Positions 4,859-59,147 of a stretch of 64,000 nt of DNA are shown piece after piece. The first letter of the stretch is position 1, and each line of letters opens with the position of its first letter. A program made the translations under genes and the position numbers. The notes below the pieces were generated by a model, which searched no databases, was not told the DNA's origin, and saw nothing but the letters and a program-made list of their open reading frames with translations. Source of the DNA: an uncultured Calditrichaceae bacterium (GTDB taxonomy: Bacteria > Calditrichota > Calditrichia > RBG-13-44-9 > J075). The stretch covers positions 7,065 through 71,064 of the forward strand of contig CAYQGB010000001.1 in NCBI GenBank assembly GCA_964416895.1, given 5' to 3'.

Positions 4859-4914
4859 GCAAATTTTAAAGTGCAAAATGCAAAGTGCAAAACGCAACAG
4901 GCAACAGGCAACAT
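4859..4914 (+). repeat. Degenerate heptanucleotide tandem repeat (8 x 7 bp): gcaaatt ttaaagt gcaaaat gcaaagt gcaaaac gcaacag gcaacag gcaacat
   Basis: Read directly from the sequence. It lies at the 5' end of, and inside the N-terminal coding part of, the GspK/PilX-like ORF. Confidence 0.7.
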
Positions 4915-7894: not shown

Positions 7895-8382
7895 GCGGCG
7901 GTTTCCAGAACATGACCCGGGGCCAGAAGCGGAGCCTTATCCTCCTGCTGCTGGTGCTGGCCTACGGGGTATTCGATTTCATCACCAATCGAGAGGATTA
8001 TCTGGCCTTTTACGCCGGGGAGAAAACCGCCCTGGATATGGCTCTGGACTCCCTGAAGCAAGAAGGGGAAACCCCGGTGGATTCCACGGCCACAGAAGAG
8101 GCGCCGGTTACCACTGTGGTGTACACCGGGGAATGGGGTGAGGATCCCTTTGCCCTTCCGGCCAGGCCTTCCCGTGCCCGAAAGGCTCCTCCGGCGCAGA
8201 AGAGGCGGTTTCGTCTGCGGTTGCGAGGCGTCAGCATCAGTCAGACCCGCTCGGTGGCGCTGATTAACAACGCCGTGGTCAAAGAGGGCGAATACATCGG
8301 GCCGTACCGGGTGGTCAAGATATATCCCGATCGGGTGGTGTTAACCAATGGGCGTGAGCGACGGGTGTTAACGGTGGAATGA
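7891..8382 (+). CDS. PilP/GspC-like protein
   Basis: MSGGFQNMTRGQKRSLILLLLVLAYGV is a signal-anchor. The C-terminus RLRGVSISQTRSVALINNAVVKEGEYIGPYRVVKIYPDRVVLTNGRERRVLTV matches the PilP/GspC secretin-interacting domain pattern. GGAGG lies upstream and the ATG overlaps the pilO stop. Confidence 0.6.
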   Translation: MSGGFQNMTRGQKRSLILLLLVLAYGVFDFITNREDYLAFYAGEKTALDMALDSLKQEGETPVDSTATEEAPVTTVVYTGEWGEDPFALPARPSRARKAPPAQKRRFRLRLRGVSISQTRSVALINNAVVKEGEYIGPYRVVKIYPDRVVLTNGRERRVLTVE

Positions 8383-8437
8383 ACCGGGGAACCGGGTCAG
8401 TATATCTCGACAGGTTGGGAAAAACGGAGAAACGGAG

Positions 8438-9739: not shown

Positions 9740-9746
9740 ACGGATC

Positions 9747-22678: not shown

Positions 22679-23611
22679 CTACCGCGGTTTTTTCACCTCC
22701 CCTTTTTGAACCACAATCCGATATGGGCTGGAATAGAATTCAATGACGTAATGGGGCATGTCGTTTTCTTCCGCAAAATCATCCACTTCAAAGACCGGAA
22801 TACGATCGAACAGCATATCCTGCCGCCACATGTGCCCATGTCCCACAAAAATGCCTTTAATGCGATCCTGATATTTTTTCAGCAAGGCAAAAAAGCGGGG
22901 TTCGTTCTGGGAGGTAATCAAATCCTTTGGTTTGGCCCAGATTTTGAAGTGATCGGTCTTTAACGGAAAATGGGTCACCACAATGGTGGGCAACCCTTTT
23001 TCCAATTCCTGTTCAAAGAATCGCATCTGTTCATCGTCGAAATGGCGGTGCAAATACCGCCCCCGCATGCTGTTCAGAACGATGAAATTCCAGCCCCGAT
23101 GTTCAACGGCATAGTATGGATCCCGTCCGGTATGTTTTTTCCAGATTTTTTCCATCTGCAAAATTTCGGCTTCCGGGAAATAGGCGTCGGAATCGCGGCC
23201 GCTCCACAGCTTGTAATCATGATTACCCATGGCAGGATACCAGGGAATGTGCAAACGATTCAGGATTTGAACTGCTTTGGCCAGTCGATTCACCGCTTGC
23301 TGTGGAAATTGCTGCGGATGTTTATCAAAGACTGACGAAACCAGATCGCCACCGTGCAATAGGAGTTCGACTTTGGGGGGTTTTTGTTCATTTAAGATAT
23401 CCACCAATCGCTTCAGCCGCGCATCTTTCTCCATATCGTTACTCACATGGGTATCCGAAATGTAGACGGCACGAAAGGCAATTTGATTTTCGCGGTAATC
23501 GGGCGGTTTGTTTTGAGGTTTAACGCAGGTCAGTAGCAGAGCGGCCGCACCGAAGATGACCCCACACAGACTTATTGTCCTTTTCTGGAGTATTCTCCAC
23601 AAAATATTCAT
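22679..23611 (-). CDS. Metallophosphoesterase (calcineurin-like phosphoesterase)
   Basis: Motifs DTH (VYISDTHVS), GGDLV, GNHDY and GHGH in canonical order. N-terminal signal/TM. Confidence 0.75.
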   Translation of the reverse strand: MNILWRILQKRTISLCGVIFGAAALLLTCVKPQNKPPDYRENQIAFRAVYISDTHVSNDMEKDARLKRLVDILNEQKPPKVELLLHGGDLVSSVFDKHPQQFPQQAVNRLAKAVQILNRLHIPWYPAMGNHDYKLWSGRDSDAYFPEAEILQMEKIWKKHTGRDPYYAVEHRGWNFIVLNSMRGRYLHRHFDDEQMRFFEQELEKGLPTIVVTHFPLKTDHFKIWAKPKDLITSQNEPRFFALLKKYQDRIKGIFVGHGHMWRQDMLFDRIPVFEVDDFAEENDMPHYVIEFYSSPYRIVVQKGEVKKPR

Positions 23612-26244
23612 TCCCGATATGCCTCCAGTAACTGCCAGTAAGGAGAAAAATCGCTGTCTTCTGCAGCGACTTTTTTCATCATGGTTTTGATTTTTTCCCA
23701 GTCACTTTGAAATTCGCGAACGATTGCTGCCGATTTCTGAGGTTGTTGACTCAACCGCAACCCCACCTGCGCTGCCCGAACTACCAGATCATTGGAATAA
23801 CGGGATTTATCCCAACCATGTGCGGCAATGAATTGCGCCACCCGCATTAACCGCCTCATTTTCCCGTAAATTCCGGAACATGTTTCCCAGTCATTACCGG
23901 CAGGAAAGCTTATCTTCAACACAATTTTGCGCTGCACATCTGTTGCGGGGATAAAAACCCGTGTTTCCAACAATTGCCCCAAATAGTTCCAGCCTGGCCA
24001 GGACATATTCTGTTGATAAGGCACATCCTGCCCATTCACTTCAATCCTTTTCGGAGGCAGGGAAAAAGGGAGGCGAATTTCATAACGCCGTTTTTGAATC
24101 ATCTCCGGAAACATCCCCTGCTGGGGACCAATTGTAACAGTCAATGTGCTTTCCGATTGGATGGTAGTGACGGGAATTAATGTGAATTGCCCCTTCTGGT
24201 AATCCACTGTTTTTCCATCATCTTCGTAAATCGAAATACTGTCAGAGGCTCCGGGGAAAATGGTTAAAATCAGCGGATCCGGTTGAATGAGGGCGTGAAG
24301 GGAATCCGCCGGTTGCATGGGAATAATTGCGCCGGCTCTCACGAACACCGGTATTTCATCCAGTTGGTAGCCCTGCTTCCAGACCCTGCCGCCTTCTAAA
24401 AGCTTGCCGGAACTCCACTCCGCCCATCTGCCTGGCGGCAGCCAGGTCTGGTACTGAATAAAGACATGGCTTGAATCCATGGGACGGGTAATAGGATGGA
24501 CAATTATTCGATCCCCAAAAAAGTATTCGTTTTTGAATTGATAGGCAGCGGGATGATCCGGGAATTCATAATACAGCGGATGGCAGATACTAACGCCACT
24601 CCGGTAAGCCCGATAAGCCATGGTGTAGATGTAAGGAATGAGTTGTTCCCGCAAGCGGATGGCTTGCTGCATGGCCTGAAAATACTGGTAGGGATACACC
24701 CAGAACCGCCGTTCGATTTCAGGGCTTTTGGTGGCATGGGTTCGAAAGATGGGACTGAAAGCCCCAAACTGGACCCAGCGTGTGTACAATTCCGGCGGAC
24801 TATCCCCCCGGGTGTGCCCACCGATATCGTGGCTCCAATAGCCATAAGCAACGTTCGCCGCTGTGGCCGTAAAGTATGGTTGAAAATCCAGCGATTGCCA
24901 GGATATGCTGGCATCACCGGAAAAGCCAATGGGATAGCGATGGGAACCCAATCCGGCGTACCGACTGAGAATCAGTGGCCGTTTTTGCCCCTGTGCTGCA
25001 TGGCTGTAAAAGGTGTAATTCAACCAGAATTCGGTATTGACGCCAGCCACCGGCCCCGTATCCCAATTCTGCCAGTCCGGCCACCAGAAATCCACCCCCT
25101 GCTGTTCCAGCGGTTGCAATACAATGGCAAAAAATTTTTGCATGAATGTTTTGTCAAACAACCGAAAGGGGATGGGTTGGCGGTCGGTTGGATTAAGCCC
25201 CAGCGCACTGGCCAGTTCGGCATAGCGCGCTTCATGGGGTAAGATGCCCGCATCCAGATGCAAGTTCAATCCCACAGCAATCTGGTGGGCATGCATCCAT
25301 TGTAAGAAGTCTGTTGGTTCCGGAAAGTAATTTCGGTTCCAGGTAAATCCCGTCCAACCCATCTTTTTGCCGCCAGGGGCGCGCTTTCGTTTTCCATGTT
25401 CAAAAAATTCCGGCAGGCTGGTGACGTGCCAGTCCATATCCACCATCAACACATCCAGCGGTAAATGATAGCGATGGTATTCTTCCACCAACTGACGCAA
25501 TTCCTGATTGGTGTATTCCCAATACCGTGACCACCAGATACCGAAGGCAAAACGCGGTGGGATGGGCGGGTGTCCCGCCACCTGAACAAAATCGAACAAA
25601 GCGGTTTTAAATTGTTTACCATAGCCAAAAAAATAGAAATCTTGCGCTTCTTTTTGAGGGCGGGGCTGAACCCAGGGCCATTCCGAATTGTCCAGCAATG
25701 CGTGGTGCGAATCGTCAATAAGCGACCAGCCATCGCGGGAAACCAGACCCTCCATCAGTTTTAATGGCTTGCCCGTGTCCCGGTGGAACGGACCATTGTG
25801 GTCATCCAGGGAGTAAGCCGTGCCCTTCAAATTCCCCTGATTGGGCATTCCCGGATACCAGGTAAAAGTCGTGTCCGGTCCATGATAAACGATAGACAAA
25901 TTTTTTGCAGTAAACCGTCCACTATTGATTCGATATTTCAGCGTCAAAAATTGGGTTTGAATGACCAGCCAGTCCCCTTCACGCCTGGTTTGGAAAGGCG
26001 GAACCGGCAGGCGGCGATGGATGAAAACAATGGAAGGCTGGTCAATAAACTGCGCGGTAGCCGACCATTCCAGCCGAATCAGGTGAGGGGTCAGCACAGT
26101 AAAACGTGCCTGCCCACTGGTAACCACAGCTTCCGGGAAAGCCTGGGGATTGGCTTTTTCGGCTGCGAATATCGGCAAACAGAAAAATAGCAGCGCCAGA
26201 ATCAACCATGCTGTTTGGACATTCCGTTTCTTTAAAAATTTCAT
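23608..26244 (-). CDS. Glycoside hydrolase family 31-like enzyme (alpha-glucosidase / alpha-xylosidase family), secreted
   Basis: The GH31-type pattern GHPPIPPRFAFGIWWSRYWEYTNQELRQLVEEYHRYHLPLDVLMVDMDWH, then VDFWWPDWQNWD. Signal peptide. 878 aa. Confidence 0.6.
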   Translation of the reverse strand: MKFLKKRNVQTAWLILALLFFCLPIFAAEKANPQAFPEAVVTSGQARFTVLTPHLIRLEWSATAQFIDQPSIVFIHRRLPVPPFQTRREGDWLVIQTQFLTLKYRINSGRFTAKNLSIVYHGPDTTFTWYPGMPNQGNLKGTAYSLDDHNGPFHRDTGKPLKLMEGLVSRDGWSLIDDSHHALLDNSEWPWVQPRPQKEAQDFYFFGYGKQFKTALFDFVQVAGHPPIPPRFAFGIWWSRYWEYTNQELRQLVEEYHRYHLPLDVLMVDMDWHVTSLPEFFEHGKRKRAPGGKKMGWTGFTWNRNYFPEPTDFLQWMHAHQIAVGLNLHLDAGILPHEARYAELASALGLNPTDRQPIPFRLFDKTFMQKFFAIVLQPLEQQGVDFWWPDWQNWDTGPVAGVNTEFWLNYTFYSHAAQGQKRPLILSRYAGLGSHRYPIGFSGDASISWQSLDFQPYFTATAANVAYGYWSHDIGGHTRGDSPPELYTRWVQFGAFSPIFRTHATKSPEIERRFWVYPYQYFQAMQQAIRLREQLIPYIYTMAYRAYRSGVSICHPLYYEFPDHPAAYQFKNEYFFGDRIIVHPITRPMDSSHVFIQYQTWLPPGRWAEWSSGKLLEGGRVWKQGYQLDEIPVFVRAGAIIPMQPADSLHALIQPDPLILTIFPGASDSISIYEDDGKTVDYQKGQFTLIPVTTIQSESTLTVTIGPQQGMFPEMIQKRRYEIRLPFSLPPKRIEVNGQDVPYQQNMSWPGWNYLGQLLETRVFIPATDVQRKIVLKISFPAGNDWETCSGIYGKMRRLMRVAQFIAAHGWDKSRYSNDLVVRAAQVGLRLSQQPQKSAAIVREFQSDWEKIKTMMKKVAAEDSDFSPYWQLLEAYRE

Positions 26245-29168
26245 CCTTCCACCTTATTCCCATCCTGAAAAGTCACTTGCTGAATAAGTTGACCCTGGCG
26301 ATTCCAGCGGCGCGCTTTCCCCTGACAACGGCCATTCTGCCAAAACGATTCCGATTTTAATTGTCCATTTTCCCAGTACTGTCGCCAGATGGATCGACCA
26401 TTGGCCTGATGTTCCCACTCCCACAGTTTATGGCCCCTGGCATCCCAGTAGGTTTCCATCCCAATTTTCCGTCCCAGATGGTAGGTAACCTCCCATTGTT
26501 TCTGTCCGGTGGGATAATACCATATTTCCTCCCCCTCCAATAGAAACCGCCCATCATCAGCCACACCGCCATGCCAGACCGCCTTCAGCTTTCCGTTAGG
26601 GTAAAACTCACGAAAGGTTTTTACCTGATTGATTTGGGTGGCCCGGGATTGCAGGATTTCCGTTTCGTCCGGCATTTCGTCGCTTAAAATCCAGGCTTCG
26701 TTCATTTCAAAATGCAAGCAGGGATCGTTCATGGAAGTAATCAGATGAATTATGCCGTTTGGCGCCTGACGTGCCACGGCATAGCCCAGCGTACCGCCTT
26801 GCATTCTTTGAGCATGTTCCGGATTTTCATGTGGCTGCACACCTGGCAAGGGCTTGATATGCCAGGTTTTTCCTTCATCGTCGGATAGCGCAACAAAGGC
26901 GCCACGGTGGGCGAAACCCGGTGGTTGATAACCATCGAACCGCTGAAAATCGGAAGCAAAAAAGAGTCGACCGCTTTGCAAACGGATAACTGTTGGTCGC
27001 TGGTTGGTTCCCAGTGGAGGGAAAGGCGATGCGCTGGCCTGCCAGCTTTTTCCCTCGTCTTCTGAAATGGCCATTGGCATGTACCCCTGAATATCAGCAT
27101 TTTTGCCACCCAATCCCAGTATGGAACCATCCCGGCGTAAAACAAAAGTGGTGTGCCGGGCAGGAGTCCGCCCTCCCGTATCGAACCAGTGTTTCCCTCC
27201 ATCTGTACTGGCCCACAATAGCGAACTTGGCCCCAGCCCATCGCAGGAGAGGTACCAGGTGCCATCCAGTCCCTTAAACGCCGTATTAATCGGCTGGGGT
27301 GTAAACGGCCCTGGCGTGCCCACAATTTGCGGATAATGCACCGCACTCCAGCTGGCACCGTTGTCCGTGGATTCAATCCATTGAAAAGGGTAGTTGCCCC
27401 GCAGGTGCAAATTGGACCAGAACAATCGTATCGTGTTGCCGTCCCGCCACAAGCAAGGGGCAGTATCGTTGGCATCGGGAATATCTAAAAACGGTGTGGG
27501 AAAATCCCATTCGTCTGCGCCAAACCGCAAACGGCTGGCAATCAGGGATACGTAAGGTTCATCCTCCTTTATGGAACTGAAATAAACCGCCAGCAGATCA
27601 CCATTGGGACAAACCACCAGACCGGGACTGTGGTTGTGCGGTCGGAAAACCGGGGCGAATCCGGCGGCTACATTTTCTTCTATAGACCGATTGTCCGGCG
27701 GGACAGGAAATAAATACCGTTTTCGGAAATAGGGTTTGGTGGGATCCGGTGCCACCTGAACATATTTGCCACCATGTTTCACACACTGCTGCACAAATGG
27801 TTTTTGCACAGGTGTTGGTGGGGTGGAGGGCAATGCTCCCATAACCACCCGAAAACCAACAGCGGGTGCAGCCTGAGCGGCAGCCAGCGCTTTTTGAAAA
27901 CGATAACGAACCTGTTTTTCATCCGCCTGATTGTGATAGAACAACCCGGCCGGCACAATCTCAGGGGATTCCCCGGGCCATTGCCAGTAAAGTTTCAGAT
28001 AAGATTGGCCGCCGTTGTGACGGTAGTGTAGCTGCAACGGGAGCGGTCGGTTGGCTTCCACAGAAAGACTCAAGCCTTTTGCGGGCATCCATTTTCTGCC
28101 GGCTTGCAATTTTTTATCGCCAACTTGCAACCAGGCAGTGGAATCGGCGATCAGGAAAAAAAGCACCTTCCCCGTTCGTTCCGGCAGGAGAAAACCCTGC
28201 CATTCTCCAGACCAGTCGTTCAAATGCGGCCAGCGGTAACCGATGCTGCGGGAATCAATGACAGGCAATGGGCCTTCTTTTGTGGGATTGGTCCAATCGT
28301 CGGAATCGTAAAAAATACCCCATAATCCCGGTTTTGTAACCTTCATGTCCTGCGGTAGAATTTGAGGTGGTTGAAGCATCCGCGTCAGAACCCAACCATC
28401 AAAATTAAGAGGCAGTCCGGCACGATTGCTGGCCCGTTGAAATTGAGGTGCCAACTCCTTAAGGCGCTTTTCCAGACTGTCCGGTAAACCGCTCCGAACC
28501 ACCCTTGTCCAGCCAGAAGCGGCCCCAACCGGATCGGTCTGTTCTTCGATGGAGTAAGGACCATACCAATCCCAACACCACTCCAGTACGCCGCTTAACA
28601 TGTTCTTCACGCCCCAGGGATGGGTTTCTTGCGGTAAAACAGTCTTCCGTCCAGCCCGACACACATATTCCCACTCCGCTTCGGTTGGTAGGCGATAAGT
28701 ATGCCCTTCCCTCTGGCTTAACCAGCGGCAAAAAGCGACCGCATCCTCCCAGCTTATGCCAGCCGCGTAGGGGGCATAACGGGGAATTCCCCGGTAATTC
28801 GACCGAAACTTCTGAAATTGTTCAATGGTGACTTCTGTTTCCGAAATCCAGAACCCGTTGGATATTTTAACCTGATGTACCGGATGTTCATCCCACTCCC
28901 CATTCCCGGTAAGATCGCCCATCCGGAAGTTTCCCGGTTCGATGCGAATCATCCGCATCCCCAGGGAATTGGTAAACGTTTCGGGCGAATCCGTTCGACA
29001 ACTGACAAAAAGCGCCAACACGAACACCATGCACAAACCAACGGCAAGGCGCTTCTGGTGGAAAGATAGAATTCCTCTCTGCCATAGCCGGGGAGGGAAA
29101 GGTAACCATTTTTTACGTTTCCTTTTAACGCACTTCCACATCGTCAATTCCCACTTTGATTGGCTCAA
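26241..29168 (-). CDS. Multidomain protein: FGE-sulfatase (SUMF1-like) domain, PA14-like region, BNR/sialidase-like beta-propeller, C-terminal MORN-variant repeats
   Basis: N-terminal lipoprotein-like signal. FGE-domain signature (RMIRIEPGNFRMGD...HPVHQVKISNGFWISETEVT...RLPTEAEWEYVCRAG). BNR SxDxGxTW repeats (STDNGASWS, STDGGKHWF, SEDEGKSWQ, SDDEGKTWH). The C-terminal tail has YxxGxxxxEgxW repeats of the MORN_2/YwqK type. Confidence 0.65.
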   Translation of the reverse strand: MSQSKWELTMWKCVKRKRKKWLPFPPRLWQRGILSFHQKRLAVGLCMVFVLALFVSCRTDSPETFTNSLGMRMIRIEPGNFRMGDLTGNGEWDEHPVHQVKISNGFWISETEVTIEQFQKFRSNYRGIPRYAPYAAGISWEDAVAFCRWLSQREGHTYRLPTEAEWEYVCRAGRKTVLPQETHPWGVKNMLSGVLEWCWDWYGPYSIEEQTDPVGAASGWTRVVRSGLPDSLEKRLKELAPQFQRASNRAGLPLNFDGWVLTRMLQPPQILPQDMKVTKPGLWGIFYDSDDWTNPTKEGPLPVIDSRSIGYRWPHLNDWSGEWQGFLLPERTGKVLFFLIADSTAWLQVGDKKLQAGRKWMPAKGLSLSVEANRPLPLQLHYRHNGGQSYLKLYWQWPGESPEIVPAGLFYHNQADEKQVRYRFQKALAAAQAAPAVGFRVVMGALPSTPPTPVQKPFVQQCVKHGGKYVQVAPDPTKPYFRKRYLFPVPPDNRSIEENVAAGFAPVFRPHNHSPGLVVCPNGDLLAVYFSSIKEDEPYVSLIASRLRFGADEWDFPTPFLDIPDANDTAPCLWRDGNTIRLFWSNLHLRGNYPFQWIESTDNGASWSAVHYPQIVGTPGPFTPQPINTAFKGLDGTWYLSCDGLGPSSLLWASTDGGKHWFDTGGRTPARHTTFVLRRDGSILGLGGKNADIQGYMPMAISEDEGKSWQASASPFPPLGTNQRPTVIRLQSGRLFFASDFQRFDGYQPPGFAHRGAFVALSDDEGKTWHIKPLPGVQPHENPEHAQRMQGGTLGYAVARQAPNGIIHLITSMNDPCLHFEMNEAWILSDEMPDETEILQSRATQINQVKTFREFYPNGKLKAVWHGGVADDGRFLLEGEEIWYYPTGQKQWEVTYHLGRKIGMETYWDARGHKLWEWEHQANGRSIWRQYWENGQLKSESFWQNGRCQGKARRWNRQGQLIQQVTFQDGNKVEG

Positions 29169-43521: not shown

Positions 43522-45012
43522 TCACCCTTGTTTGTTGGGATGAAGCATATCCAGATACTCATAGTCCTTATCCTGGGGCCAGTCTTTCTCCGGCCAGTAC
43601 TGCTTTTCAGGATCAAAATCCGGGTTTACCGTCATCATCTGAGCGTTCACGTCCTTCAGCCATTTGTGGAACATCTCTCGCAATTGTTTCACTTTTTCCG
43701 GCATACGGTCGGCCAGGTTATTGCTCTCACTCATATCTTCGGTGATCCGGTACAGATCCACCTGATGCTCTTCATTCAAAAGCGTCTGCTCGTACCACTC
43801 AATTAGTTTATACTCTCCCCATCGAATGGCCCCCGAGGGTTTGAATCCCTGACGGTGATAATGGGGATAATGCCAGCACAGCGCCCTCTCGGGGAGAGTG
43901 CCCCCGCCGGTGAGAAGGGGCATTAAACTGACCCCATCCACGCTTCCGTCGGGCACCTGCGCCCCGGCGATTTCGGCAAAGGTGGGGAAAAAGTCATTGG
44001 ATATGACCGGCACATGGGAGACGCTTCCCGGCTGGATGACTCCCGGCCAGCGAATGGCGAAAGGCACCCGAATGCCCCCTTCAAACACCATCGCCTTGCC
44101 GCCCCGCAACGGCGCCTGATCCTGAAGATATTTGAATCCCCCGTTATCGGAGAAAAACACCACCACGGTGCGTTCGGCCAATCCCAGTGCATCCAGCTTA
44201 TCCAGAATTTTGCCGATTCCCCAGTCCATCCGCTTGATCATGGCCCCCATGATGGGGTTGTTCACCGGATCGGCGTGGTGAGGTTTGGTCTTGTAGTAGT
44301 TGATCAAATCTTTGTTTTCCATCAACGGGCGGTGCACCACATGATGCGACACATAAGCGAAAAACGGGCGATCTTTATTATGTTCGATAAACTCCAGGGT
44401 TCTGCGGGTGATTTCAATGGCGTGGTGGGCATCTTTATCGGGATCGGCGTCTGGTTTGGGTTTCACCGAGGTATATACCACATCAAAGCCCTGAGAACCC
44501 GGATCGCCCGGCCGACCGGGCTGGTAATTTTTGTCGTAATTCAGATGCCATTTACCAAAATGCCCGGTGACATATCCCTGTTGCTTCAGCAACTCCGCAA
44601 TGGTGACTTCTTCCAGAGGGAGCGCCCGCACCTGTTGGGGGGTTTTCAGTTTGGCGTAGGGATAGCGGTTGCCGGGAAGATAATCGGTCAGGTGCAGCCG
44701 GGCGGGATATTTGCCGGTGAGAATACTGGCGCGCGCCGGAGAACATACCGGGGCGGCGGTGTAAGCATCCGTAAAATAGATCCCCTCGTGGGCAATGCGG
44801 TCGATGTTGGGGGTATCGTAAAAGTCGCTCACCCCGTGGTATCGCACCTGATTCCACCCCTGATCATCGGACAGGATAAACACTATATTCCAGGGTTTAT
44901 CGCCGGAACCCGACCGGGCCAGCAGGGAATTCAGCCCCCCCGGCCAGAGACTGCTTGCCGCCAGCGCCAGCGATCCCCGACCACAAACTTTCACAAACTT
45001 ACGCCGGTTCAT
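43522..45012 (-). CDS. Cys-type sulfatase (arylsulfatase family) with twin-arginine-like signal
   Basis: Sulfatase signature CSPARASILTGKYPARLH (C-x-P-x-R core). N-terminal MNRRKFVKVCGRGSLALAASS is a Tat-type signal. About 496 aa. Confidence 0.85.
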   Translation of the reverse strand: MNRRKFVKVCGRGSLALAASSLWPGGLNSLLARSGSGDKPWNIVFILSDDQGWNQVRYHGVSDFYDTPNIDRIAHEGIYFTDAYTAAPVCSPARASILTGKYPARLHLTDYLPGNRYPYAKLKTPQQVRALPLEEVTIAELLKQQGYVTGHFGKWHLNYDKNYQPGRPGDPGSQGFDVVYTSVKPKPDADPDKDAHHAIEITRRTLEFIEHNKDRPFFAYVSHHVVHRPLMENKDLINYYKTKPHHADPVNNPIMGAMIKRMDWGIGKILDKLDALGLAERTVVVFFSDNGGFKYLQDQAPLRGGKAMVFEGGIRVPFAIRWPGVIQPGSVSHVPVISNDFFPTFAEIAGAQVPDGSVDGVSLMPLLTGGGTLPERALCWHYPHYHRQGFKPSGAIRWGEYKLIEWYEQTLLNEEHQVDLYRITEDMSESNNLADRMPEKVKQLREMFHKWLKDVNAQMMTVNPDFDPEKQYWPEKDWPQDKDYEYLDMLHPNKQG

Positions 45013-45263: not shown

Positions 45264-48068
45264 TCAGCGGGTAATCTTCAGGCCACCCCGCATCCACCAG
45301 GAGTAGAATTCGTTCAGGCGTGGGCGGGTTTCCTCGCCAAAATATTCCCGCTTCGGCTCATTGTTCAGGTTGATCATCTGCACGTAAAGGCTCACGCCTT
45401 TTACCACCTGATAAGCGGCCGAAAAGTCGATTTGCAAATGATCGTCGATGAACCGGTCGAAGTCCGGGGTATCCCCCACCCGATACATCAGATCGCTGGT
45501 GTAGTTGGCGCTCAGGCGGGCGGTAAACCCGTATTTGTCGTAGCTGATCCCCACATTGCCCACATCGCCGGCCTGACCGGGAAGGGTAGACACTTCCGGG
45601 CGGAAAGTGAGATCGGCTTCGGACTTGGTGTAGGTGTAATTCCCGAAGATTCCCAATCCGCTGAGCGCCCCGGGCAAGAAGGTCAATTGCTGGGTAAAGC
45701 CAATTTCAAAACCATACAGTTTGGCCTTTCCACCGTTTACCGGCTGTTCCACGAAAAAGCCGTCGAAGGGGCCGCCCTGCTGGCGGGTGATCACCGGGTA
45801 GATGATCTTATCCAGGGATTTGTAGAATACACCCAGCGCAATGCCTCCCACCTGCCGGAAATAGTGCTCAAACATCAGGTCGAAATTGAGCGAAGTGGTG
45901 GGTTCCAGTTCCGGATTCCCCCGGAGAATTTCCTGGTCTTCAGGGAAGACCCATCGGTAGGGAGCCAGATCAAAGTAGTTGGGGCGAGAGATACCCGTGG
46001 TCACCGCAAAGCGCAGGTTGCTCAGAGGAGTTACCCGATACCGGATGTGCAGCGCCGGAAACACATTGTTGTAGGAGTTTTCCTGTTTCACATCCTTGGA
46101 ACTTAAGAATTCTCCCTGATCATCGTAGAGGAGTTCCACGCCCTCGTAGTTGGTTTTGGTGAACTCATCGCGCACGCCGGCCAGCAGGGTAAAATTCCCC
46201 GCTTCCAGGGTGGCCATGGCATACCCGGCAAAGATATCTTCTCCGGCGTTGTATTTCCCGCCCGCACCGTCGGGATCGTCCAGACGAGGTTCTTCCCTCA
46301 AACCATCATCCTGTCCCCGAAACTGCTCAAAGAAGGGCCAGTAACGATCGGCGTTCATAATCGGAGCGAAGGTGTAATGATCCTCCAGAAAACCGGTGAT
46401 TTGATCCCCACCGGCAAACTGGCTCATCAGGATGTCATCCGCCCCTCTCCATTTGTACTTGAACCGCTGGCTATTCCGATCCTTGTCTTCCAGCTTGAGT
46501 TTGCCACCCAGCTTAAAATAGGTGGGATTGTTCCCCAGCAGGGTTCGAACTTGCAGGTTCAGGCTTCCGATCAGTTTTTTGTTGGAAGTGAAGGTTTCCC
46601 GGAAATCCTGATTGTCGATTTCCCAGTGGGAAGGATCGTAAATGTAATTGGGATCCAGATTGGTCACCGTAATGCCGGGAAAATCCACATCCGAAAGATC
46701 CAGCTTTAGATCCACTTTTTCATCCAGTTGAAATTCGGATTTGATTTGGCCGGGATCCTTTTTGGTCTCTTCCGCATAGCTGTAGGAGAGGGTATAGTCC
46801 AGGTTAATCCGCCCGGCCTGATGTTTTCCCCCGCCGAGGATGGTGTAAATTTTCTGCACCTCATCCCGGGCTTGCATTTCATAGGCCAGTCGGGCTTTGC
46901 TGATGGTAGTGCGATCCAGGTAATCCCCTTTCTTAACCCGAAAACGGATCATATTGCGCACCTGGTCGTCGTTCCGCTGGTTGTACATTCCCCGCACGAA
47001 GAAACGGTTGTTGTCGTTCACCCGATATTCCAGGGTGGAACTCAAGCCCAGGTGGTCCCGCCGGGTATCGTAATTAAACATCCGAAAATCGGTGAGGGCA
47101 AAAGGGATGGGATTGCCGTTGACATCCTCCTCCTCGTCCCAGTCCATTTCATCGGAATGGCTGCCGATGTTGTTGCGATACCAGTTGGCATTTATCGACA
47201 GGCCGAAACTCCGATTTTCCCCCAGCACATTGCTGTAGGAAAGGGATCCCCGATATAACGGTTCCTGAGGCAGGTCAGAGTACCCGCTACCCAGATCCAG
47301 ATCAATATGCTGTCCCGGATAATCGAAGGCGCTGTGGGTAATCAGATTGACCACCCCCCCGATGGCGTCGCCATCCATATCCGGCGTGAGGGCTTTCACG
47401 ACCTCCATATAAGCCAGCTGGCTGGAATTGATTACATCCAGCCCCACGAAGCGCTCCTCATCCTGAGGGGAGGCAATGGGTTCTCCATCCACCTCCACGG
47501 TGGTTAAACGGGGTTCAGTGCCGCGCAGATACACGAACCGCCCTTCTCCCAGGCTCCGCTGAATGGCCACTCCGGGGATGCGCTGCAATACTTCGGCGGT
47601 GTTCATATCCGGAAAGCGTTCCATTTCTTCCCGGGAGAGCACGTTTTTGATATTGGCCGAATTGAGCTGCTGACTCAGGGCCTTCATCTGCCCCCGTACA
47701 TATTCCACGACTTCCACTTCCTCCCCGGGAACCGCCGAAACTTCCAGGCTAATATTGACCCGAACCGAAGGCTCCGTTTCCGAAAGGGTCACCGTTTGGG
47801 AATAATCTTTATACCCGATATAGGAGACCTTCAGGGTATAGGAACCGAAGGGTACCTGGTCGATCAAAAATACCCCGTAACGGTCGGTAGTTGCCCCATA
47901 TACGGTGCCTTCCAGATAGGCAATGGCCCCGGGAAGATTGTCGCCGGTGGTGGCATCGGTAATCACCCCAACAATCCGTCCGGTATTCTGAGCCTGTACA
48001 GGCATCCAGCAAATGCCCAGCCACAGGGTCAGAAGCACAAGCATAGAGATTGTGTAACCTCGTTTCAT
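45264..48068 (-). CDS. TonB-dependent outer-membrane receptor with N-terminal carboxypeptidase-regulatory-like domain
   Basis: Signal peptide. CarbopepD_reg-like domain (GRIVGVITDATTGDNLPGAIAYLEGTVYGATTDRYGVFLI). Plug domain (FPDMNTAEVLQRIPGVAIQRSLGEGRFVYLRGTEPRLTTVEVDGEPI). Long beta-barrel. 934 aa. Confidence 0.8.
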   Translation of the reverse strand: MKRGYTISMLVLLTLWLGICWMPVQAQNTGRIVGVITDATTGDNLPGAIAYLEGTVYGATTDRYGVFLIDQVPFGSYTLKVSYIGYKDYSQTVTLSETEPSVRVNISLEVSAVPGEEVEVVEYVRGQMKALSQQLNSANIKNVLSREEMERFPDMNTAEVLQRIPGVAIQRSLGEGRFVYLRGTEPRLTTVEVDGEPIASPQDEERFVGLDVINSSQLAYMEVVKALTPDMDGDAIGGVVNLITHSAFDYPGQHIDLDLGSGYSDLPQEPLYRGSLSYSNVLGENRSFGLSINANWYRNNIGSHSDEMDWDEEEDVNGNPIPFALTDFRMFNYDTRRDHLGLSSTLEYRVNDNNRFFVRGMYNQRNDDQVRNMIRFRVKKGDYLDRTTISKARLAYEMQARDEVQKIYTILGGGKHQAGRINLDYTLSYSYAEETKKDPGQIKSEFQLDEKVDLKLDLSDVDFPGITVTNLDPNYIYDPSHWEIDNQDFRETFTSNKKLIGSLNLQVRTLLGNNPTYFKLGGKLKLEDKDRNSQRFKYKWRGADDILMSQFAGGDQITGFLEDHYTFAPIMNADRYWPFFEQFRGQDDGLREEPRLDDPDGAGGKYNAGEDIFAGYAMATLEAGNFTLLAGVRDEFTKTNYEGVELLYDDQGEFLSSKDVKQENSYNNVFPALHIRYRVTPLSNLRFAVTTGISRPNYFDLAPYRWVFPEDQEILRGNPELEPTTSLNFDLMFEHYFRQVGGIALGVFYKSLDKIIYPVITRQQGGPFDGFFVEQPVNGGKAKLYGFEIGFTQQLTFLPGALSGLGIFGNYTYTKSEADLTFRPEVSTLPGQAGDVGNVGISYDKYGFTARLSANYTSDLMYRVGDTPDFDRFIDDHLQIDFSAAYQVVKGVSLYVQMINLNNEPKREYFGEETRPRLNEFYSWWMRGGLKITR

Positions 48069-52764: not shown

Positions 52765-53670
52765 TTAATACAGCCGCTTCCGCTTCAATAGATACCGCAG
52801 CAGGGCCTTGTCGAAACTCTCCGTGGTAAGGATATTCTGGAACTCCACCTGCATGTTGTAACAGGCGGCTTTTAATTCCTCGTAAAACGCCTCGATCAAT
52901 TCCCGGTAATCCTGCCGGATCAAAAAGGGCTGGGTTTTCAGCTCCTCGCCGGTTTCCATATCCACAAAGGTGGCCTCGTCCCCGAAGTTGAAAAAGCGGT
53001 CGTTGGGATCCAGAATGTTGAACACCAGCACCTCGTGCCCGTAGTACCGGAAATGCCGCAGGCCTTCCAGAATTTTGGGGGCGTCTTCATACAGGAATTC
53101 CGACAGCAGAATAATCAGCCCCCGCCGTTTAATCTTTTCCGCCATGATGTGCAGGGTCTCGCTGACGTGTGTGGGAGCGGTCTCCGGTTGGGCTTCCTGC
53201 AACGCCTGAAGCAGGAATTTGATGTACGACTGGGTGGATTTGGGGGGCAAATAGCGGTGAATCTTATCCGAGAACAACACCAGCCCCACCGCATCCCGCT
53301 GCTTCAACAACAGGTAGGAAAAGGCCGCCGCCAGATACACCGAGTACTGCAATTTGGTAATCTTGTGGCTGGTGTAGCCCATGGAACCGGAAACATCCAC
53401 CAGGATGTGGGCTTTCAGGTTGGTTTCCTCTTCATACTGTTTGATGTAGTACCGGTCGGTGCGGCCGTACACCTTCCAGTCGATGTCCCGGATGTTATCG
53501 CCGGGCATGTATTGCCGGTGCTCGGAGAATTCCACGCTGAAGCCGTGGAAGGGGCTTTTGTGCAGCCCCACCAGAAATCCTTCCACGATAAACCGGGCAA
53601 TCAATTCCAGATTCTTCACTTTGGCGACGACTTCCGGGAGGAGATATTGTCGGGCGTCGGAAACCTTCAT
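52765..53670 (-). CDS. DUF58 family protein (vWA-like; usually MoxR-associated)
   Basis: EFSEHRQYMPGDNIRDIDWKVYGRTDRYYIKQYEEETNL...ILVDVSGSMGY is the DUF58 signature. Confidence 0.75.
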   Translation of the reverse strand: MKVSDARQYLLPEVVAKVKNLELIARFIVEGFLVGLHKSPFHGFSVEFSEHRQYMPGDNIRDIDWKVYGRTDRYYIKQYEEETNLKAHILVDVSGSMGYTSHKITKLQYSVYLAAAFSYLLLKQRDAVGLVLFSDKIHRYLPPKSTQSYIKFLLQALQEAQPETAPTHVSETLHIMAEKIKRRGLIILLSEFLYEDAPKILEGLRHFRYYGHEVLVFNILDPNDRFFNFGDEATFVDMETGEELKTQPFLIRQDYRELIEAFYEELKAACYNMQVEFQNILTTESFDKALLRYLLKRKRLY

Positions 53671-53810: not shown

Positions 53811-54258
53811 TATATTGGAAAAATATTTACATATCGAGGTAACATTCCTTTGATCACGCTTAAGCATGTACTTCCCGGAGAGAAACTGCTTCGGGAAATT
53901 TCAAACCGGCGAAAAAACAATCCAACCAAGAGCAATAGTATAGCCTTCACCGCCGATGTACAAAGGCAAGGCTATAAGATACACAAAAAATCCGCCGTTG
54001 CTTGCAGGAGAATAAACTTTTGTGTATCCTCACCGGGGCGGTGGCATCTAAACGTTGCCTTTTGTCCCATGGTGACCGGGGGTTCCCGGCCAGGGGCAAG
54101 GTTTCAAAGATTCTGCCGATATTTGGTGAAACAGGATGCGCAATGGGTAAACGCATCTTTCACGTTTCATGCATCACGTTTCACGCTGGATACCAGAAGT
54201 CTCAGAATTTTGTACCCACAGGCAACACCGGAACAAACGAAAACGGAGGAGAACTACC

Positions 54259-55227
54259 GTGAGCAATCCTGAACATCACAAACTGATCATCATCGGTTCG
54301 GGGCCGGCGGGAGATACCGCGGCTCTGTATGCGGCGCGGGCGGAATTGCAGCCGGTGGTCTTTGCCGGGGCACAGCCCGGAGGGCAGCTGACCATCACCA
54401 CCGATGTGGAAAATTATCCCGGTTTTCCCGAAGGCATTATGGGGCCGGAGCTAATGGAGCGGTTTCGCCAGCAGGCGGAGCGGTTCGGGGCAAAGTTCAT
54501 CTATAAAACGGTCACCGGGGTGGACTTTTCCCGGCGCCCCTTTGTGCTGGATGTGGAAGGCACCCCCTACACCGCCGATGCGGTGATCATCGCCTCCGGA
54601 GCCTCGGCCCGGCTGTTAGGGCTGGAATCGGAATCCCGGTTGATGGGCTATGGGGTCTCCGCCTGCGCCACCTGCGACGGGTTCTTCTTTAAGGACAAGC
54701 ATGTGGTGGTGGTCGGCGGAGGGGACTCGGCCATGGAAGAGGCCCTCTTTCTGACCAAATACGCCTCCCGGGTGACCGTCATTCACCGGCGGGATCAACT
54801 GCGGGCCTCCAAAATCATGCAGCAGCGAGCCTTTCAGAACGAGAAGATCGACTTTCTATGGAACAAGGTGGTGGTGGAGATTCTGGGCAGCCGGGAAGCA
54901 GGAGTGACCGGCGTGCGTCTGAAAGACACCGTCACCGGGGAGGAAAGCGAATTCACCTGCGAAGGGGTGTTCCTGGCCATCGGGCACCGGCCCAACACGG
55001 AGATTTTCCGGGGCCAACTGGAGTTAGATGAACAGGGCTACATCGTCACCCAGCCCGGAACCACCAAGACCTCGGTGCCGGGAGTCTTCGCCGCCGGGGA
55101 TGTGCAGGATCGGGTGTACCGGCAGGCGGTAACCGCAGCAGGCAGCGGGTGCATGGCCGCCATCGATGCGGAGCACTATCTGGCAACGCTGGAGTTTGAA
55201 CAGAAGACCGTTTCCCGGGCCGGCTGA
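54259..55227 (+). CDS. trxB: Thioredoxin-disulfide reductase
   Basis: FAD motif [12 protein letters not shown]. Redox-active CATCDG. NADPH motif [20 protein letters not shown] lies upstream of GTG 54259. Confidence 0.85.
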
Positions 55228-55309: not shown

Positions 55310-56242
55310 TCAAGGCTTTCCCCGACGGCTGAGGAGGTTCAACTGCCAGTTGGCTTCGATCAGCACCCCCCATTTTCCTTCCCGTTCCAACAGGCCGTGG
55401 GTGGGGAAAATCTCCACACTCACATACGGCAATCGCCAGGTAACCCCCACCCGGGCCAGGGAACGATCTTCCGTGCCCCGGGGAATAAACCGCCGGGTGG
55501 AATGGATACCGTTCACCTCCGCCGACAGGAGCAGCCGGGGATGAAGCTGCCACATCAGCCCCAGCCCATAGGCCAGCACGTCGTTCTGCACGTTGGGCAA
55601 TTGGGGCGCCGCCAGAATGGCCACACCCACATCGGAAAATACGGTGAGGCCGGCAATCCGGTGGGTGAGCACAATCGCCAGGGTAATGTCGGTGGTGTTG
55701 GGGCCTAATCCCCGATCCTGATTGGTATTGGGCAGAGTGGTGCTCAGGCGCAGCCCGATGGCGGGATGATACTTCCCCGCCGCCACCAATTGCGCCAGGG
55801 TGGTGATGGTAAAATCCCCCACATCCCGGGCGCTTTCCAAAGCGGCCATCCCCCCCGGTAGCGCCTCCGGATGCAACACCTGATGAATAATCCCCCGCAC
55901 CCGCAGGGAGACATTCTCGGAAAGGTAAAACTCCACTCCCAGAACTCCATAACGGTTCAGATTGCCTCGCAGTTCAGAGACAGGCGCAATCCAGTCGTCC
56001 CGGAACTCGTATCCCCAGTGGATCAATACCGTGCGCGCCTTCATGGGATGCAGATAAGCCGTGCGCAGCCCGATAACCCGATTGGGGGCGGTCAACCAGC
56101 TTCGGCTTGGGGATTTTTTTTCCTCGCCCGCCCATATCGTGGTCGCAATCAACAGCACCGACAGGATGAACCGCGCCCATCCGCCGGTGCGAAAGCTCGG
56201 CTTCCATCGGCGAGATCCTTTTCGCTTCGGGAAATTGCTCAT
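55310..56242 (-). CDS. Hypothetical secreted / outer-membrane-like protein
   Basis: Signal-like N-terminus (RFILSVLLIATTIWAGEE) with beta-strand-rich sequence downstream. GGAGGAG lies 10 nt upstream of ATG 56242. No family recognised. Confidence 0.4.
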   Translation of the reverse strand: MSNFPKRKGSRRWKPSFRTGGWARFILSVLLIATTIWAGEEKKSPSRSWLTAPNRVIGLRTAYLHPMKARTVLIHWGYEFRDDWIAPVSELRGNLNRYGVLGVEFYLSENVSLRVRGIIHQVLHPEALPGGMAALESARDVGDFTITTLAQLVAAGKYHPAIGLRLSTTLPNTNQDRGLGPNTTDITLAIVLTHRIAGLTVFSDVGVAILAAPQLPNVQNDVLAYGLGLMWQLHPRLLLSAEVNGIHSTRRFIPRGTEDRSLARVGVTWRLPYVSVEIFPTHGLLEREGKWGVLIEANWQLNLLSRRGKP

Positions 56243-56406
56243 CAACGTCAGACTCCTCCGGGATTCCTTATGGATGATCATTGTCGCGATAGTGGGGGAA
56301 AATATATTCCGTTTCTTCCGGCGCAATGTTAGCTTTCCCACACTGCGCCGGAAGAAAACGACCGGGGAAATCAGGCGGCGGTAAGATACACAGGAAGGCC
56401 ATTGAT

Positions 56407-56634
56407 GTTATCGTTGACGCAGGAGGGTAAGAATTTCCTCGTGTTCGGGAAAACGCCCCTCTTTCTTCTTGGAAAAGATCAACTCTCCATCGGCCACCAC
56501 CTCGAAGACCCCTCCGGAAGACTTGATCAATTCCGCCTCGATCCCCAACTCCTTCTTGAGCGTCTCCGCCAAACTGGCGGCTTTGGGGTAGTAGTTTCAC
56601 TCCACGCAATATTCAATGCTCAGTTTTCGTACCA
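56407..56634 (-). CDS. SelW/Rdx-family selenoprotein (SelW-like), 75 aa, with in-frame TGA (selenocysteine) codon at 56596-56598
   Basis: Minus-strand translation reads MVRKLSIEYCVE-U-NYYPKAASLAETLKKELGIEAELIKSSGGVFEVVADGELIFSKKKEGRFPEHEEILTLLRQR*. The CxxU redox motif and the GG(V/I)FEV...DG.LI(F/W)SK...G.FP core are the Rdx/SelW signature. GGAGGT lies 7 nt upstream of the ATG. The ORF is invisible to stop-to-stop ORF calling because of the TGA. Confidence 0.75.
56565..56579 (-). promoter_or_regulatory. Candidate bacterial SECIS hairpin (CCGCCA-GUU-UGGCGG) 16 nt downstream of the UGA codon
   Basis: Perfect 6-bp stem with a G/U-containing apical loop, placed where bacterial SECIS elements usually sit, about 10-25 nt 3' of the UGA. 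Confidence 0.45.
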
Positions 56635-56996
56635 TGAGATTTACCTCCGGCTTAAGGGTTTATTACGGCGATTTTCCCGAGGAATCGGGAGCTTCCATCC
56701 AATTTGATTTCCCTTACCACGAAACCTACCCGGTAAAAGAATTGCCCAAATTCTCACATCTCCGGTGTCAGTTCCCCCCCCTGCACATTTACCGGTATAC
56801 CTCATAAGGGCTCTTCTGCCGGGAAAATAAGAGATTTTCAAATATAACCACTTTCCCGAAAAGGTTGAATCGGTTTTTGCAATTTTGAATTGGATGTTTC
56901 ATATCCTTGTGTAAATTTGTTTGCCGGATGGCAAGGTAGTGTGGGGGGCTTGGGTTTAGCCCCGGGAGACTTCATCTAAACCGAGAGCCAAGTGCC

Positions 56997-57671
56997 ATGA
57001 ACGTGTTGAGGAATCTTTTTGCCAGATCCCCCTTTTCTCCGCTTCAGTCGCACATGGAGAAAGTGGCCGCCTGCGTCAAAAAACTGAACGAGTTATATCA
57101 GGCCTACGTTCACAACGATTGGGATCGGATCAATGCCCTGGCCGAGGAAATCTCCGAGATGGAACATGCCGCCGATCTCACCAAAAACGAAATCCGCAAT
57201 CACCTTCCCAAAGGGCTGTTTTTGGCGGTGAATCGGGGGGATTTGCTGGAAATTCTGGCCCTTCAGGATACCCTCGCCGACCGGGCCGAAGACATCGGCA
57301 TCCTGATGACCCTCAAGCGGCTGGAACCGCTGGAAGGGATGGAAGATGATCTCAAAAAATTTCTGGACAAGAACCTGGAAGCGGTTGAGCATGTGCATGC
57401 GATTATCCGGGAGATGGATGAACTGGTGGAAGCTTCCTTCGGCGGGAGGGAAGCGGAAAAAGTCATGCGCATGGTGGAAGAAGTGGCCTATATGGAACAT
57501 GAAGCGGATGTGTTGCAACGGGAGCTTTTGAAGAAGCTGTACAATATGGATGACACCCTTCCGTATAGCAGCTTTCAATTATGGATCAATATTTTGCAGG
57601 CCGTGGCCTCTCTGGCCAATCTTGCCGAAAAGTTAGCCAATCGAGTTCGGATGTTGCTGGAAGTGAAATAG
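56997..57671 (+). CDS. DUF47 / TIGR00153 PhoU-like phosphate-transport regulator family protein
   Basis: Helical protein of 224 aa encoded directly upstream of a PiT transporter, the classic DUF47-Pit pair. The sequence MNVLRNLFARSP...LKKLNELY is consistent with that family. Confidence 0.75.
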   Translation: MNVLRNLFARSPFSPLQSHMEKVAACVKKLNELYQAYVHNDWDRINALAEEISEMEHAADLTKNEIRNHLPKGLFLAVNRGDLLEILALQDTLADRAEDIGILMTLKRLEPLEGMEDDLKKFLDKNLEAVEHVHAIIREMDELVEASFGGREAEKVMRMVEEVAYMEHEADVLQRELLKKLYNMDDTLPYSSFQLWINILQAVASLANLAEKLANRVRMLLEVK

Positions 57672-57719: not shown

Positions 57720-59147
57720 ATGGGAATTGAAACGGTTATTCTGCTTATTGCGTTGGTGGCAGGGTTTTACATGGCCTGGAGTGTGGGCGCGAACGACGTG
57801 GCCAATGCCATGGGCACGTCGGTGGGTTCCGGCGCGCTGACCATCAAGCGGGCGGTGATCATCGCGGCGGTTCTGGAATTCATCGGGGCGGTGTTTGTAG
57901 GAACGCATGTCTCGGAGACCATCCGCAAAGGCATCATCAGCCCGGAAATTTTCACCGGCAACGAGTTCCACCTGATGTACGGGATGATCGGGGCGCTGAT
58001 GGCGGCGGCGGTATGGTTGCAGGTGGCCTCTTATTTCGGCTGGCCCGTCTCCACCACCCATTCCATCGTCGGTTCGGTGCTGGGATTCGGGGTGATGTAT
58101 GCCGGTACCCACGCCGCCGACTGGGGAAAAGTCGCCTCCATTGTGGCCAGCTGGATCATCTCCCCCCTCCTGTGCGGCACCCTCGCCTATCTGATCTTCA
58201 GCCTGCTACGCCGCCTGATCTTTCATAACCAGGAACCGGTGCAGGCGGCCAAAAAGATTACCCCCTATGTCTCTTTCTGCGTGTTCTGGGTGTTGACCCT
58301 GGCCATGGTATTCAAAGGGCTGAAAAACCTGCACCTGCATCTGGAATTTGGACGGGCCTCCCTGATCGCCACGGCAGTGGGACTGGTGGCGGCGGCGATC
58401 AGTTTTTTTCTGGTGCGCCGCATTCAGCCTCAGGACGACCGGGAAGATCGGGTGACAGTGCGCCAACCTCCGCCGGTCATTCAGGAGATTACCGAAGCTG
58501 CGCATCATCTGGAAAAAGCGGTAGTGGATGCCAGAGGAGCATTCAAAGAGCAAATCGCCACCCTGTATCAGGATTTGTTGCTCCTGAGCAAAGAAGCGGA
58601 ACAAGGCACCACCGTGGAGCGGGGCAGCGCCGAGTTCCGGGCGGTGGAGCGGATTTTTGTTTACCTTCAGGTGCTGAGTGCGGCGTTTGTGGCTTTTGCC
58701 CACGGCGCCAACGATGTGGCCAATGCCGTGGGGCCTCTGGCAGCGGTGATCAGCATTTTGCAGACCGGGCAGGTGGCCATGAAGACCGCGGTGCCTCTGT
58801 GGGTGCTGGTGTTAGGGGGTACCGGCATCGTTATCGGGTTGGCGACCTGGGGCTGGCGGGTGATGATCACCATCGGAAAGAAAATCACCGAACTCACCCC
58901 CACCCGGGGATTCTCCGCCGAATTTGCCGCCGCCTCGACCATTGTTCTGGCCAGCAAGCTGGGATTGCCGGTGAGCACGACCCATACGCTGGTGGGCGGC
59001 GTACTGGGGGTGGGGCTGGCCCGGGGGCTGAGCGCTCTGAACCTCCGGGTGGTTACCCACATCATCATCTCCTGGATCGTCACCCTTCCGGCAGGCGCCC
59101 TGGGGGCAATGCTGTTTTACCACCTCATGCGGATACTCTTTGGATAG
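57720..59147 (+). CDS. Inorganic phosphate transporter (PiT family)
   Basis: Duplicated GANDVANAMGTSVG and GANDVANAVGPL PiT signature motifs. About 10 TM segments. Confidence 0.85.
   Translation: MGIETVILLIALVAGFYMAWSVGANDVANAMGTSVGSGALTIKRAVIIAAVLEFIGAVFVGTHVSETIRKGIISPEIFTGNEFHLMYGMIGALMAAAVWLQVASYFGWPVSTTHSIVGSVLGFGVMYAGTHAADWGKVASIVASWIISPLLCGTLAYLIFSLLRRLIFHNQEPVQAAKKITPYVSFCVFWVLTLAMVFKGLKNLHLHLEFGRASLIATAVGLVAAAISFFLVRRIQPQDDREDRVTVRQPPPVIQEITEAAHHLEKAVVDARGAFKEQIATLYQDLLLLSKEAEQGTTVERGSAEFRAVERIFVYLQVLSAAFVAFAHGANDVANAVGPLAAVISILQTGQVAMKTAVPLWVLVLGGTGIVIGLATWGWRVMITIGKKITELTPTRGFSAEFAAASTIVLASKLGLPVSTTHTLVGGVLGVGLARGLSALNLRVVTHIIISWIVTLPAGALGAMLFYHLMRILFG

Follow-up and report, generated by a model that had tools for sequence, protein, structure and literature searches.

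Here we describe a selenoprotein gene concealed in a 64,000-nucleotide stretch of DNA from an uncultured Calditrichaceae bacterium (contig CAYQGB010000001.1), the whole of which was analysed and is called the window below. On its minus strand, positions 56635..56408 very probably form a functional gene for a 75-residue SelW-like selenoprotein of thioredoxin-like fold, in which an in-frame UGA is decoded by means of a selenocysteine insertion sequence (SECIS) to give the motif Cys10-Val-Glu-Sec13, Sec being selenocysteine. Direct support comes from membership of the protein family, from a codon at which UGA and Cys form a conserved pair, from purifying selection that runs through the UGA, and from a conserved, covarying hairpin that is specific to the Sec-type genes. 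We infer in addition that SelB binds this hairpin, that Sec is inserted in the host, and that the product carries out redox chemistry with a cellular reductant.

The gene had been proposed in an earlier note made from the sequence alone, which described a 75-residue minus-strand protein preceded by the Shine-Dalgarno sequence GGAGGT at a spacing of 7 nt, and both are found in the sequence. The coordinates offered there, 56407-56634, specify a wrong frame that is full of stops, whereas 56408-56635 yields exactly the protein that had been given. Translated from the minus strand, this interval reads MVRKLSIEYCVE, then the TGA of codon 13, then NYYPKAASLAETLKKELGIEAELIKSSGGVFEVVADGELIFSKKKEGRFPEHEEILTLLRQR and a terminal stop; the part after the TGA begins NYYPK and ends LLRQR, and the active-site motif can be written C10-V-E-U13. 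The note had also held that the list of open reading frames (ORFs) missed the full gene and that standard annotation would miss or shorten it. Indeed, the mechanical ORF list contains at this locus only a truncated, TTG-initiated ORF of 54 amino acids (56408..56572), which is without the active site, together with overlapping spurious ORFs.

Profile searches, run with Cys in the place of Sec, bear out the proposed SelW/Rdx assignment. The alignment to Pfam PF10262 (Rdx) covers profile positions 2-74 of 74 (E=3.7e-21, 75.5 bits with a cutoff of 22.6), and the cutoffs were also exceeded for the NCBIfam equivalog NF041051, ‘SelT/SelW/SelH family (seleno)protein’ (98.4 bits vs 88), and for TIGR02174, CXXU_selWTH (67.6 bits vs 34.2). 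The truncated 54-residue ORF matches Rdx positions 26-74 only. Residues 4-73 also match the sequences of the solved structures 2fa8 (E=1e-10), 3dex, 2p0g, 2obk, 2oka, 2ojl and human MIEN1 (2ljk), and the CxxU of the window protein aligns onto the CxxC of SelW-related structures and of Cys homologs. The fold was examined on a Cys homolog, P0032, the closest true Cys form (63% identical), standing in for the window protein. Its model, with a mean predicted local distance difference test score (pLDDT) of 95, has the topology b1(3-8)-CxxC-a1(14-28)-b2-b3-b4-a2, the redox motif sitting between strand E3-8 and helix H14-28, that is, at the end of b1 and before a1. The model superposes on 2fa8 with a template modelling (TM) score of 0.91 and a root-mean-square deviation (rmsd) of 1.3 A; mouse SelW (2npb) and then thioredoxins come after it among the matches. 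Judged by these comparisons, the 75-codon gene is a genuine member of the bacterial SelW-like selenoprotein family.

Within that family (PF10262, TIGR02174, NF041051) the window gene shows no difference in kind, its host lineage being Calditrichaceae-like by synteny. Like the known members, it encodes about 75 residues that form a single Rdx domain with CxxU after strand b1, and it carries a short SECIS hairpin within the coding region after the Sec codon; the family is also one in which Sec forms predominate, Cys homologs are few, and annotation typically misses or truncates the gene. The mammalian proteins SelW/SELENOW (2npb) and MIEN1 (2ljk) share the Rdx thioredoxin-like fold and the position of the CxxU/CxxC motif, but their sequence identity to the window protein is only ~22-31%, and eukaryotic SelW differs further in using a SECIS of unrelated type in the 3'-untranslated region, with SBP2 and eEFSec. 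The Cys-form Rdx structures (Atu0228 2fa8, SAV_2001 3dex, VcR75 2p0g, 2obk, 2oka and 2ojl) have the same fold; the homolog model superposes on them at TM 0.8-0.9, and the window sequence matches them at E=1e-10 to 1e-6. Unlike the window gene, they have CxxC in proteins of ~100 residues with extra termini, without an in-frame UGA or a SECIS.

The nature of codon 13 was addressed through homologs at both the protein and the DNA level. A search of a collection of 5.8 billion proteins returned 282 relatives, of which the best 120 were classified. Trp is recorded at the position aligned to Sec in 90 of these 120, true CxxC forms account for 9, and 17 are fragments of 52-56 residues that start after the TGA. 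The DNA behind one of the Trp-bearing records, P0003, has TGA at that position and does not yield the recorded protein under the bacterial code (code 11). Recorded Trp in the homologs therefore looks like a gene-calling artefact, in which TGA on short metagenome contigs was read under genetic code 4.

A scan of genomes, one per species, returned 428 relatives, and the best 80 (52-82% identity) were analysed. In all 80 the aligned codon 13 is TGA and codon 10 is TGC or TGT, the frame is open on either side of the TGA, and the SIEYC and GGVFEV...LIFSKK...RFPE motifs are kept. These relatives span Calditrichota, Desulfobacterota, Planctomycetota, Zixiibacteriota, KSB1, Krumholzibacteriia, Eisenbacteria, Thermoanaerobaculia, Fibrobacter and others, and the close Calditrichaceae relatives all retain the TGA form. 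A second scan, of metagenome contigs and seeded with Cys forms, gave 80 loci with TGA at codon 13 in 43 and TGC or TGT in 37. The suggestion in the note that orthologs be inspected for Cys is thus answered by TGA in the best 80 relatives and TGC/TGT in more distant homologs, with no frameshift or random stop. As read from these alignments, the alternation of TGA with TGC/TGT at a single codon is a classic Sec/Cys pair.

Selection on the frame was assessed by counting substitutions between the window gene and 13 relatives by codon position. The differences at positions 1:2:3 number 46:40:82 in codons 1-12 and 180:95:428 in codons 14-71, the latter being the downstream third-position bias that the note had asked about. 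With the bias present on both sides of the TGA, a single frame is evidently under purifying selection through it. Furthermore, the ATG with its Shine-Dalgarno sequence is kept in the closest relatives, AGGAG or GGAGG standing at the same distance before it. Elsewhere in the window, TGA terminates 13 of the 35 long ORFs; it is therefore an ordinary stop here, and the genetic code has not been reassigned.

The hairpin that the note had placed 16 nt 3' of the UGA is present as described, at 56580..56566, with a perfect 6-bp stem and the loop GUU. The loop G (56574) and the following U (56573) lie 23 and 24 nt after the UGA, which makes them nucleotides 26-27 when the U of UGA is counted as 1. In bacteria a SECIS is described as a stem of 6-8 bp closed by a small apical loop, in which a G some 20 nt past the UGA is conserved (PMC4605307, PMC1088965), a rule that the window hairpin satisfies, and it is also consistent with the 5/6-bp hairpin reported for epsilonproteobacterial SelW genes (PMC4607533). 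In most relatives, single-sequence folds recover the same hairpin equally far from the UGA, and its register is common to 124 TGA-type genes, in which the loop G never varies.

Covariation was tested for this named structure on an ungapped alignment of 81 sequences (A3), in the same numbering. Pairing is seen in 93-100% of the sequences at the core positions 20:34, 21:33, 23:31, 24:30 and 25:29, and in 63 of 81 at 22:32, where 13 double changes occur. Changes in the stem are compensatory at synonymous sites. At pair 21:33, both members of which are synonymous third positions of Ala codons, the combinations are CG 54, UA 12, GC 8, UG 3 and AU 2; pair 24:30, likewise synonymous, is paired in 81/81 with four double changes. 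An 8-bp version of the stem has 81.8% of its cells paired, versus 23-50% after a shift of the 3' partners by 1-3 columns, and none of 500 shuffles attained the observed covariation score, by a statistic that ignores kinship. In the loop, G26 is invariant and U27 at least 90% conserved.

Since the stem is encoded by a conserved peptide, A-A-S-L-A, coding alone could mimic such a structure, and the Cys-type genes provide the control. Over the 37 Cys-type homologs the hairpin decays to 3.9 of 6 pairs, compared with 5.9 of 6 in TGA-type genes. Among distinct sequences the mean number of pairs out of 6 is 5.85 in TGA-type and 3.81 in Cys-type genes (Mann-Whitney p=2e-11), and among genes that encode exactly AASLA it is 5.92 vs 4.0 (p=6e-6), both tests again taking no account of kinship among the sequences. 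Of 33 Sec-type genes 30 have the loop GU[CU], compared with just 13 of 31 genes of the Cys type, and the synonymous stem pairs of the Cys-type genes are essentially random. Pairing is thus lost in Cys-type genes even where the peptide is identical, which ties the hairpin to the UGA and not to the peptide. On the evidence of these alignments, selection on the RNA itself, beyond that on the encoded protein, maintains the hairpin. One Cys-type gene, CVQCNYGPQAVSLADAIK (L104:593-802), still has the hairpin with 6/6 pairs and a GU loop; it is near-identical to TGA-type genes that read CVE, TGA, NYGPQAVSLADA[LI]K (L111:412-621 and L114:3001-3210). From its sequence, it looks like a very recent conversion of Sec to Cys that has kept a ‘fossil’ SECIS.

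The SECIS of E. coli fdhF, the bacterial SelB-dependent Sec insertion signal, serves for comparison; its sequence is matched at 100% identity in fdhF of >5,400 genomes, and its loop is GGUC. Both hairpins lie within coding sequence directly 3' of the UGA and carry G-U in their apical loops. The loop of fdhF also has a counterpart among the relatives of the window gene, 21 of the 81 A3 sequences having G at column 25, mostly as GGUCU. The two elements differ in that the loop G-U stands at 23-24 in fdhF and at 26-27, one codon further 3', in the window gene, and in that the window gene, with a perfect helix of 6 bp, has neither a bulged U nor any evident equivalent of the long lower stem in fdhF.

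The following pathway is proposed for expression and function. Translation would start at the ATG behind GGAGGT and would not terminate at the UGA of codon 13. The hairpin at 56580..56566 would act as a bacterial SECIS, bound by the C-terminal winged-helix domains 3-4 of SelB, which would deliver Sec-tRNA(Sec) to the A site and so decode the UGA about 20 nt upstream; these steps are drawn from established bacterial Sec decoding (PMC4605307). By analogy with its family, in which CxxU is set in a thioredoxin-like fold (PMC1088965), the product is most likely a small thiol/selenol oxidoreductase. In such a protein Sec13 would attack as the nucleophile and Cys10 would resolve, and the resulting selenenylsulfide would be returned to the reduced state by a thiol system. 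A candidate for this reductant is the thioredoxin/thioredoxin-reductase system, because trxB is a conserved neighbour of the gene in the lineage.

Several readings in which no Sec is inserted were considered against this one. Selenoprotein loss is frequent in bacteria (PMC1794560), and no sel gene or tRNA-Sec is encoded in the window, so the gene could be intact in a host that has recently lost Sec decoding, where the UGA would terminate and the gene would be a non-functional relic, or selenoprotein fossil. We consider this reading, the most probable of the rivals, improbable, because the ATG, the Shine-Dalgarno sequence, Cys10, the TGA, the perfect 6-bp stem, the loop with GU and the whole downstream frame show no damage, the changes with respect to relatives at 71-82% protein identity are mostly synonymous, unlike those of a decaying gene, and the close Calditrichaceae relatives are all of the TGA form. 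Another idea is that of a pseudogene in which the TGA is a nonsense mutation of a Cys codon (TGC/TGT) in a CxxC Rdx protein. Such a mutation requires only a single-base change, and Cys-form homologs exist; but the TGA recurs in 80/80 of the best genomic relatives, across many phyla, and in 43 further metagenome loci, it is accompanied by the Sec-specific hairpin, and purifying selection persists downstream of it. The conservation of the TGA and the downstream selection effectively refute this idea, to which we give very little credence.

The true product might instead be the 54-residue protein that starts at an internal TTG (56572), the 12 upstream codons being non-coding or a short leader peptide, as the mechanical ORF list and the 17 of the 120 best database relatives recorded at 52-56 residues would have it. 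However, this TTG is a Leu codon inside the hairpin with no Shine-Dalgarno sequence before it, the product would be without strand b1 and CxxU and would cover Rdx positions 26-74 only, and the upstream SIEYC codons, the ATG and its Shine-Dalgarno sequence recur, in the same frame, in different phyla. These direct results contradict the internal start and leave it a very slim chance. There is next to no chance that in this organism TGA encodes an ordinary amino acid, Trp under genetic code 4 or Gly under code 25. The W entered for 90 of the 120 best database homologs would favour this, but it is the artefact set out above for P0003; the relatives belong to many standard-code phyla, the aligned residue in true homologs is Cys and not Trp, and the use of TGA as the terminator of 13 of the 35 long, family-supported ORFs of the window refutes a reassigned code.

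Some results nevertheless weigh against a functional, Sec-decoding gene or against parts of the pathway proposed for it. Neither selA, selB nor selD was found in the 64-kb window by hidden Markov model (HMM) annotation of the long ORFs (40 queries, with three ORFs in both libraries), and a tRNA scan found no tRNA-Sec in it; the same scan of the loci of 60 relatives also gave none. No credible second selenoprotein gene emerged in the window from the coding potential around every TGA or from a scan for SECIS-like hairpins with an open frame. Of the matches in that scan, only the one at 56599 lies in unassigned DNA, the other six falling within the spans of long annotated ORFs; two of the six were examined, and both are out of frame. 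A consensus scan, which may not suit this lineage, found no sigma-70-like promoter upstream of the gene on the minus strand. For the hairpin, RNAalifold gave no consensus structure from the 81-sequence alignment, Rfam gave no relevant match (whole window at the gathering threshold, 56480-56680 at a permissive one), and kinship is uncorrected in the shuffle and Mann-Whitney statistics; its support consists of the named structure, the per-sequence folds and the comparison of Sec-type with Cys-type genes. Finally, the SelW-like gene and trxB are convergent and not co-transcribed, and we treat the thioredoxin system as reductant as a lead only.

The neighbourhood of the gene (Table 1) places the window in a lineage. 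trxB adjoins the SelW-like gene in 17 of 161 related loci, with the DUF58 gene next in 15, and in the twelve loci with listed coordinates trxB is convergent and lies 36-189 nt beyond the SelW-like stop. The named loci among these are Calditrichaceae/Calditrichia metagenome-assembled genomes (MAGs), the trxB-adjacent loci have a protein identity to the window of 66-85%, and one locus, L003, additionally shares DUF47 and Pit. This shared synteny indicates that the window comes from a Calditrichaceae-type genome. It also hints at a functional link between the SelW-like protein and thioredoxin reductase. A more specific proposal, which we regard as rather unlikely, is that the neighbouring TrxB has the selenoprotein as its dedicated substrate or partner, in a minimal Sec-based thioredoxin-like redox relay.

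Table 1. Coordinates of the SelW-like gene, its sequence elements, its neighbours and other sites mentioned in the text.
Feature	Location	Strand	Remarks
SelW-like (Rdx family) selenoprotein coding sequence	56408..56635	-	75 codons + TAA stop; ATG 56635..56633
Shine-Dalgarno GGAGGT	56643..56648	-	7 nt upstream of ATG; read from sequence
Cys10 codon TGC	56606..56608	-	first residue of CxxU redox motif
In-frame TGA, codon 13	56597..56599	-	read as Sec, U of CxxU
SECIS-type hairpin CCGCCA-GUU-UGGCGG	56566..56580	-	within coding sequence, codons A-A-S-L-A; 16 nt after UGA
17-bp perfect stem-loop UUUCUUCCGGCGCAGUG...CAUUGCGCCGGAAGAAA	56313..56356	-	52 nt after SelW-like stop; A/U-rich stretch follows
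Pit-type transporter	57720..59147	+	
DUF47/TIGR00153 protein	56997..57671	+	
343-residue ORF	55310..56341	-	no Pfam or NCBIfam match
Thioredoxin reductase trxB	54169..55227	+	TIGR01292, 426 bits
DUF58 protein	52765..53670	-	
Synteny Pit-DUF47-SelW-trxB-DUF58	window 52765-59147		loci L001, L003, L004, L005, L008, L011-L013, L017, L019, L021
Synteny Pit-DUF47-SelW-trxB-DUF58, further loci			L081, L113, L117, L118, L142
Best 120 database homologs, Trp-for-Sec and truncated records among them	P0001-P0120; L081:302-529		database homologs
Glycan-utilisation gene sites	11135-12475, 26241-29168, 43522-45012, 23608-26244, 45264-48068	all -	

Between the SelW-like gene and trxB the window has an ORF of 343 residues, close to whose N-terminus lies a hydrophobic stretch that resembles a signal sequence. 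None of the 161 related loci contains this ORF, SelW and trxB being immediate neighbours there, and it appears to be an insertion specific to the window genome. The stem-loop that follows the SelW-like stop overlaps the listed GTG start of this ORF, which therefore probably starts further downstream. The 116-nt stem-loop region folds with -40.4 kcal/mol (z=-4.1), and none of 200 shuffles folds as well. The element is possibly the transcription terminator of the SelW-like gene, or else a regulatory element, an assignment that is uncertain; a terminator consensus scan found none on the minus strand near the gene, the loop and tail of this stem-loop being outside the limits of the scan. In the trxB ORF as listed, an N-terminal extension of ~37 residues rich in Arg, Lys and His precedes the TIGR01292 match, which starts at residue 38; translation probably starts at a codon inside the listed ORF.

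The remainder of the window is rich in genes for the utilisation of polysaccharides and sulfated glycans, among them an anaerobic sulfatase maturase, an FGE-sulfatase/BNR protein, a sulfatase, a GH31 glycosidase and a TonB-dependent receptor with a CarboxypepD_reg domain. Among the large secreted proteins of the window, several have a FlgD_ig domain at the C-terminus. A type IV pilus/type II secretion-like cluster occupies 10-10772 on the plus strand, in the order GspE/PilB-like ATPase (C-terminal part, with two response-regulator receiver domains), GspF/PilC, PilM-like protein, PilQ secretin and PilT. The fusion of a GspE/PilB ATPase with receiver domains is unusual and may be an artefact of an ORF that runs in from the edge of the window.

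The bacterial SelW-like family has been covered in surveys of prokaryotic selenoproteomes (PMC1088965, PMC1794560, PMC4607533). In the Sargasso Sea data it outnumbered every other selenoprotein family, with 48 genes, and its function was described there as unclear (PMC1088965); it has also been reported from 10 sequenced genomes, with few Cys homologs (PMC1794560). Bacterial SelW-like CxxU selenoproteins have been known since 2004-2006, so the window gene adds an ordinary example and leaves selenocysteine biology as it is known unchanged. In the literature searched, nothing relevant was found that combines Caldithrix or Calditrich- with selenocysteine or selenoprotein.

The main value of the finding lies in the quality of annotation, standard gene calling either missing the gene or giving a 54-residue fragment without the active site. 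The Trp-for-Sec and truncated records of most of the close homologs would be a systematic error for this family in public collections. The comparison of Sec-type with Cys-type genes provides a clean illustration of selection at the RNA level on a SECIS hairpin. With the gene called correctly, the genome can also be counted among those of probable Sec users, and a lineage of Calditrichaceae type joins the hosts of SelW-like selenoproteins. If the protein does prove to be a partner of the neighbouring TrxB, this would open a concrete and testable way into the function of the SelW-like proteins of bacteria.

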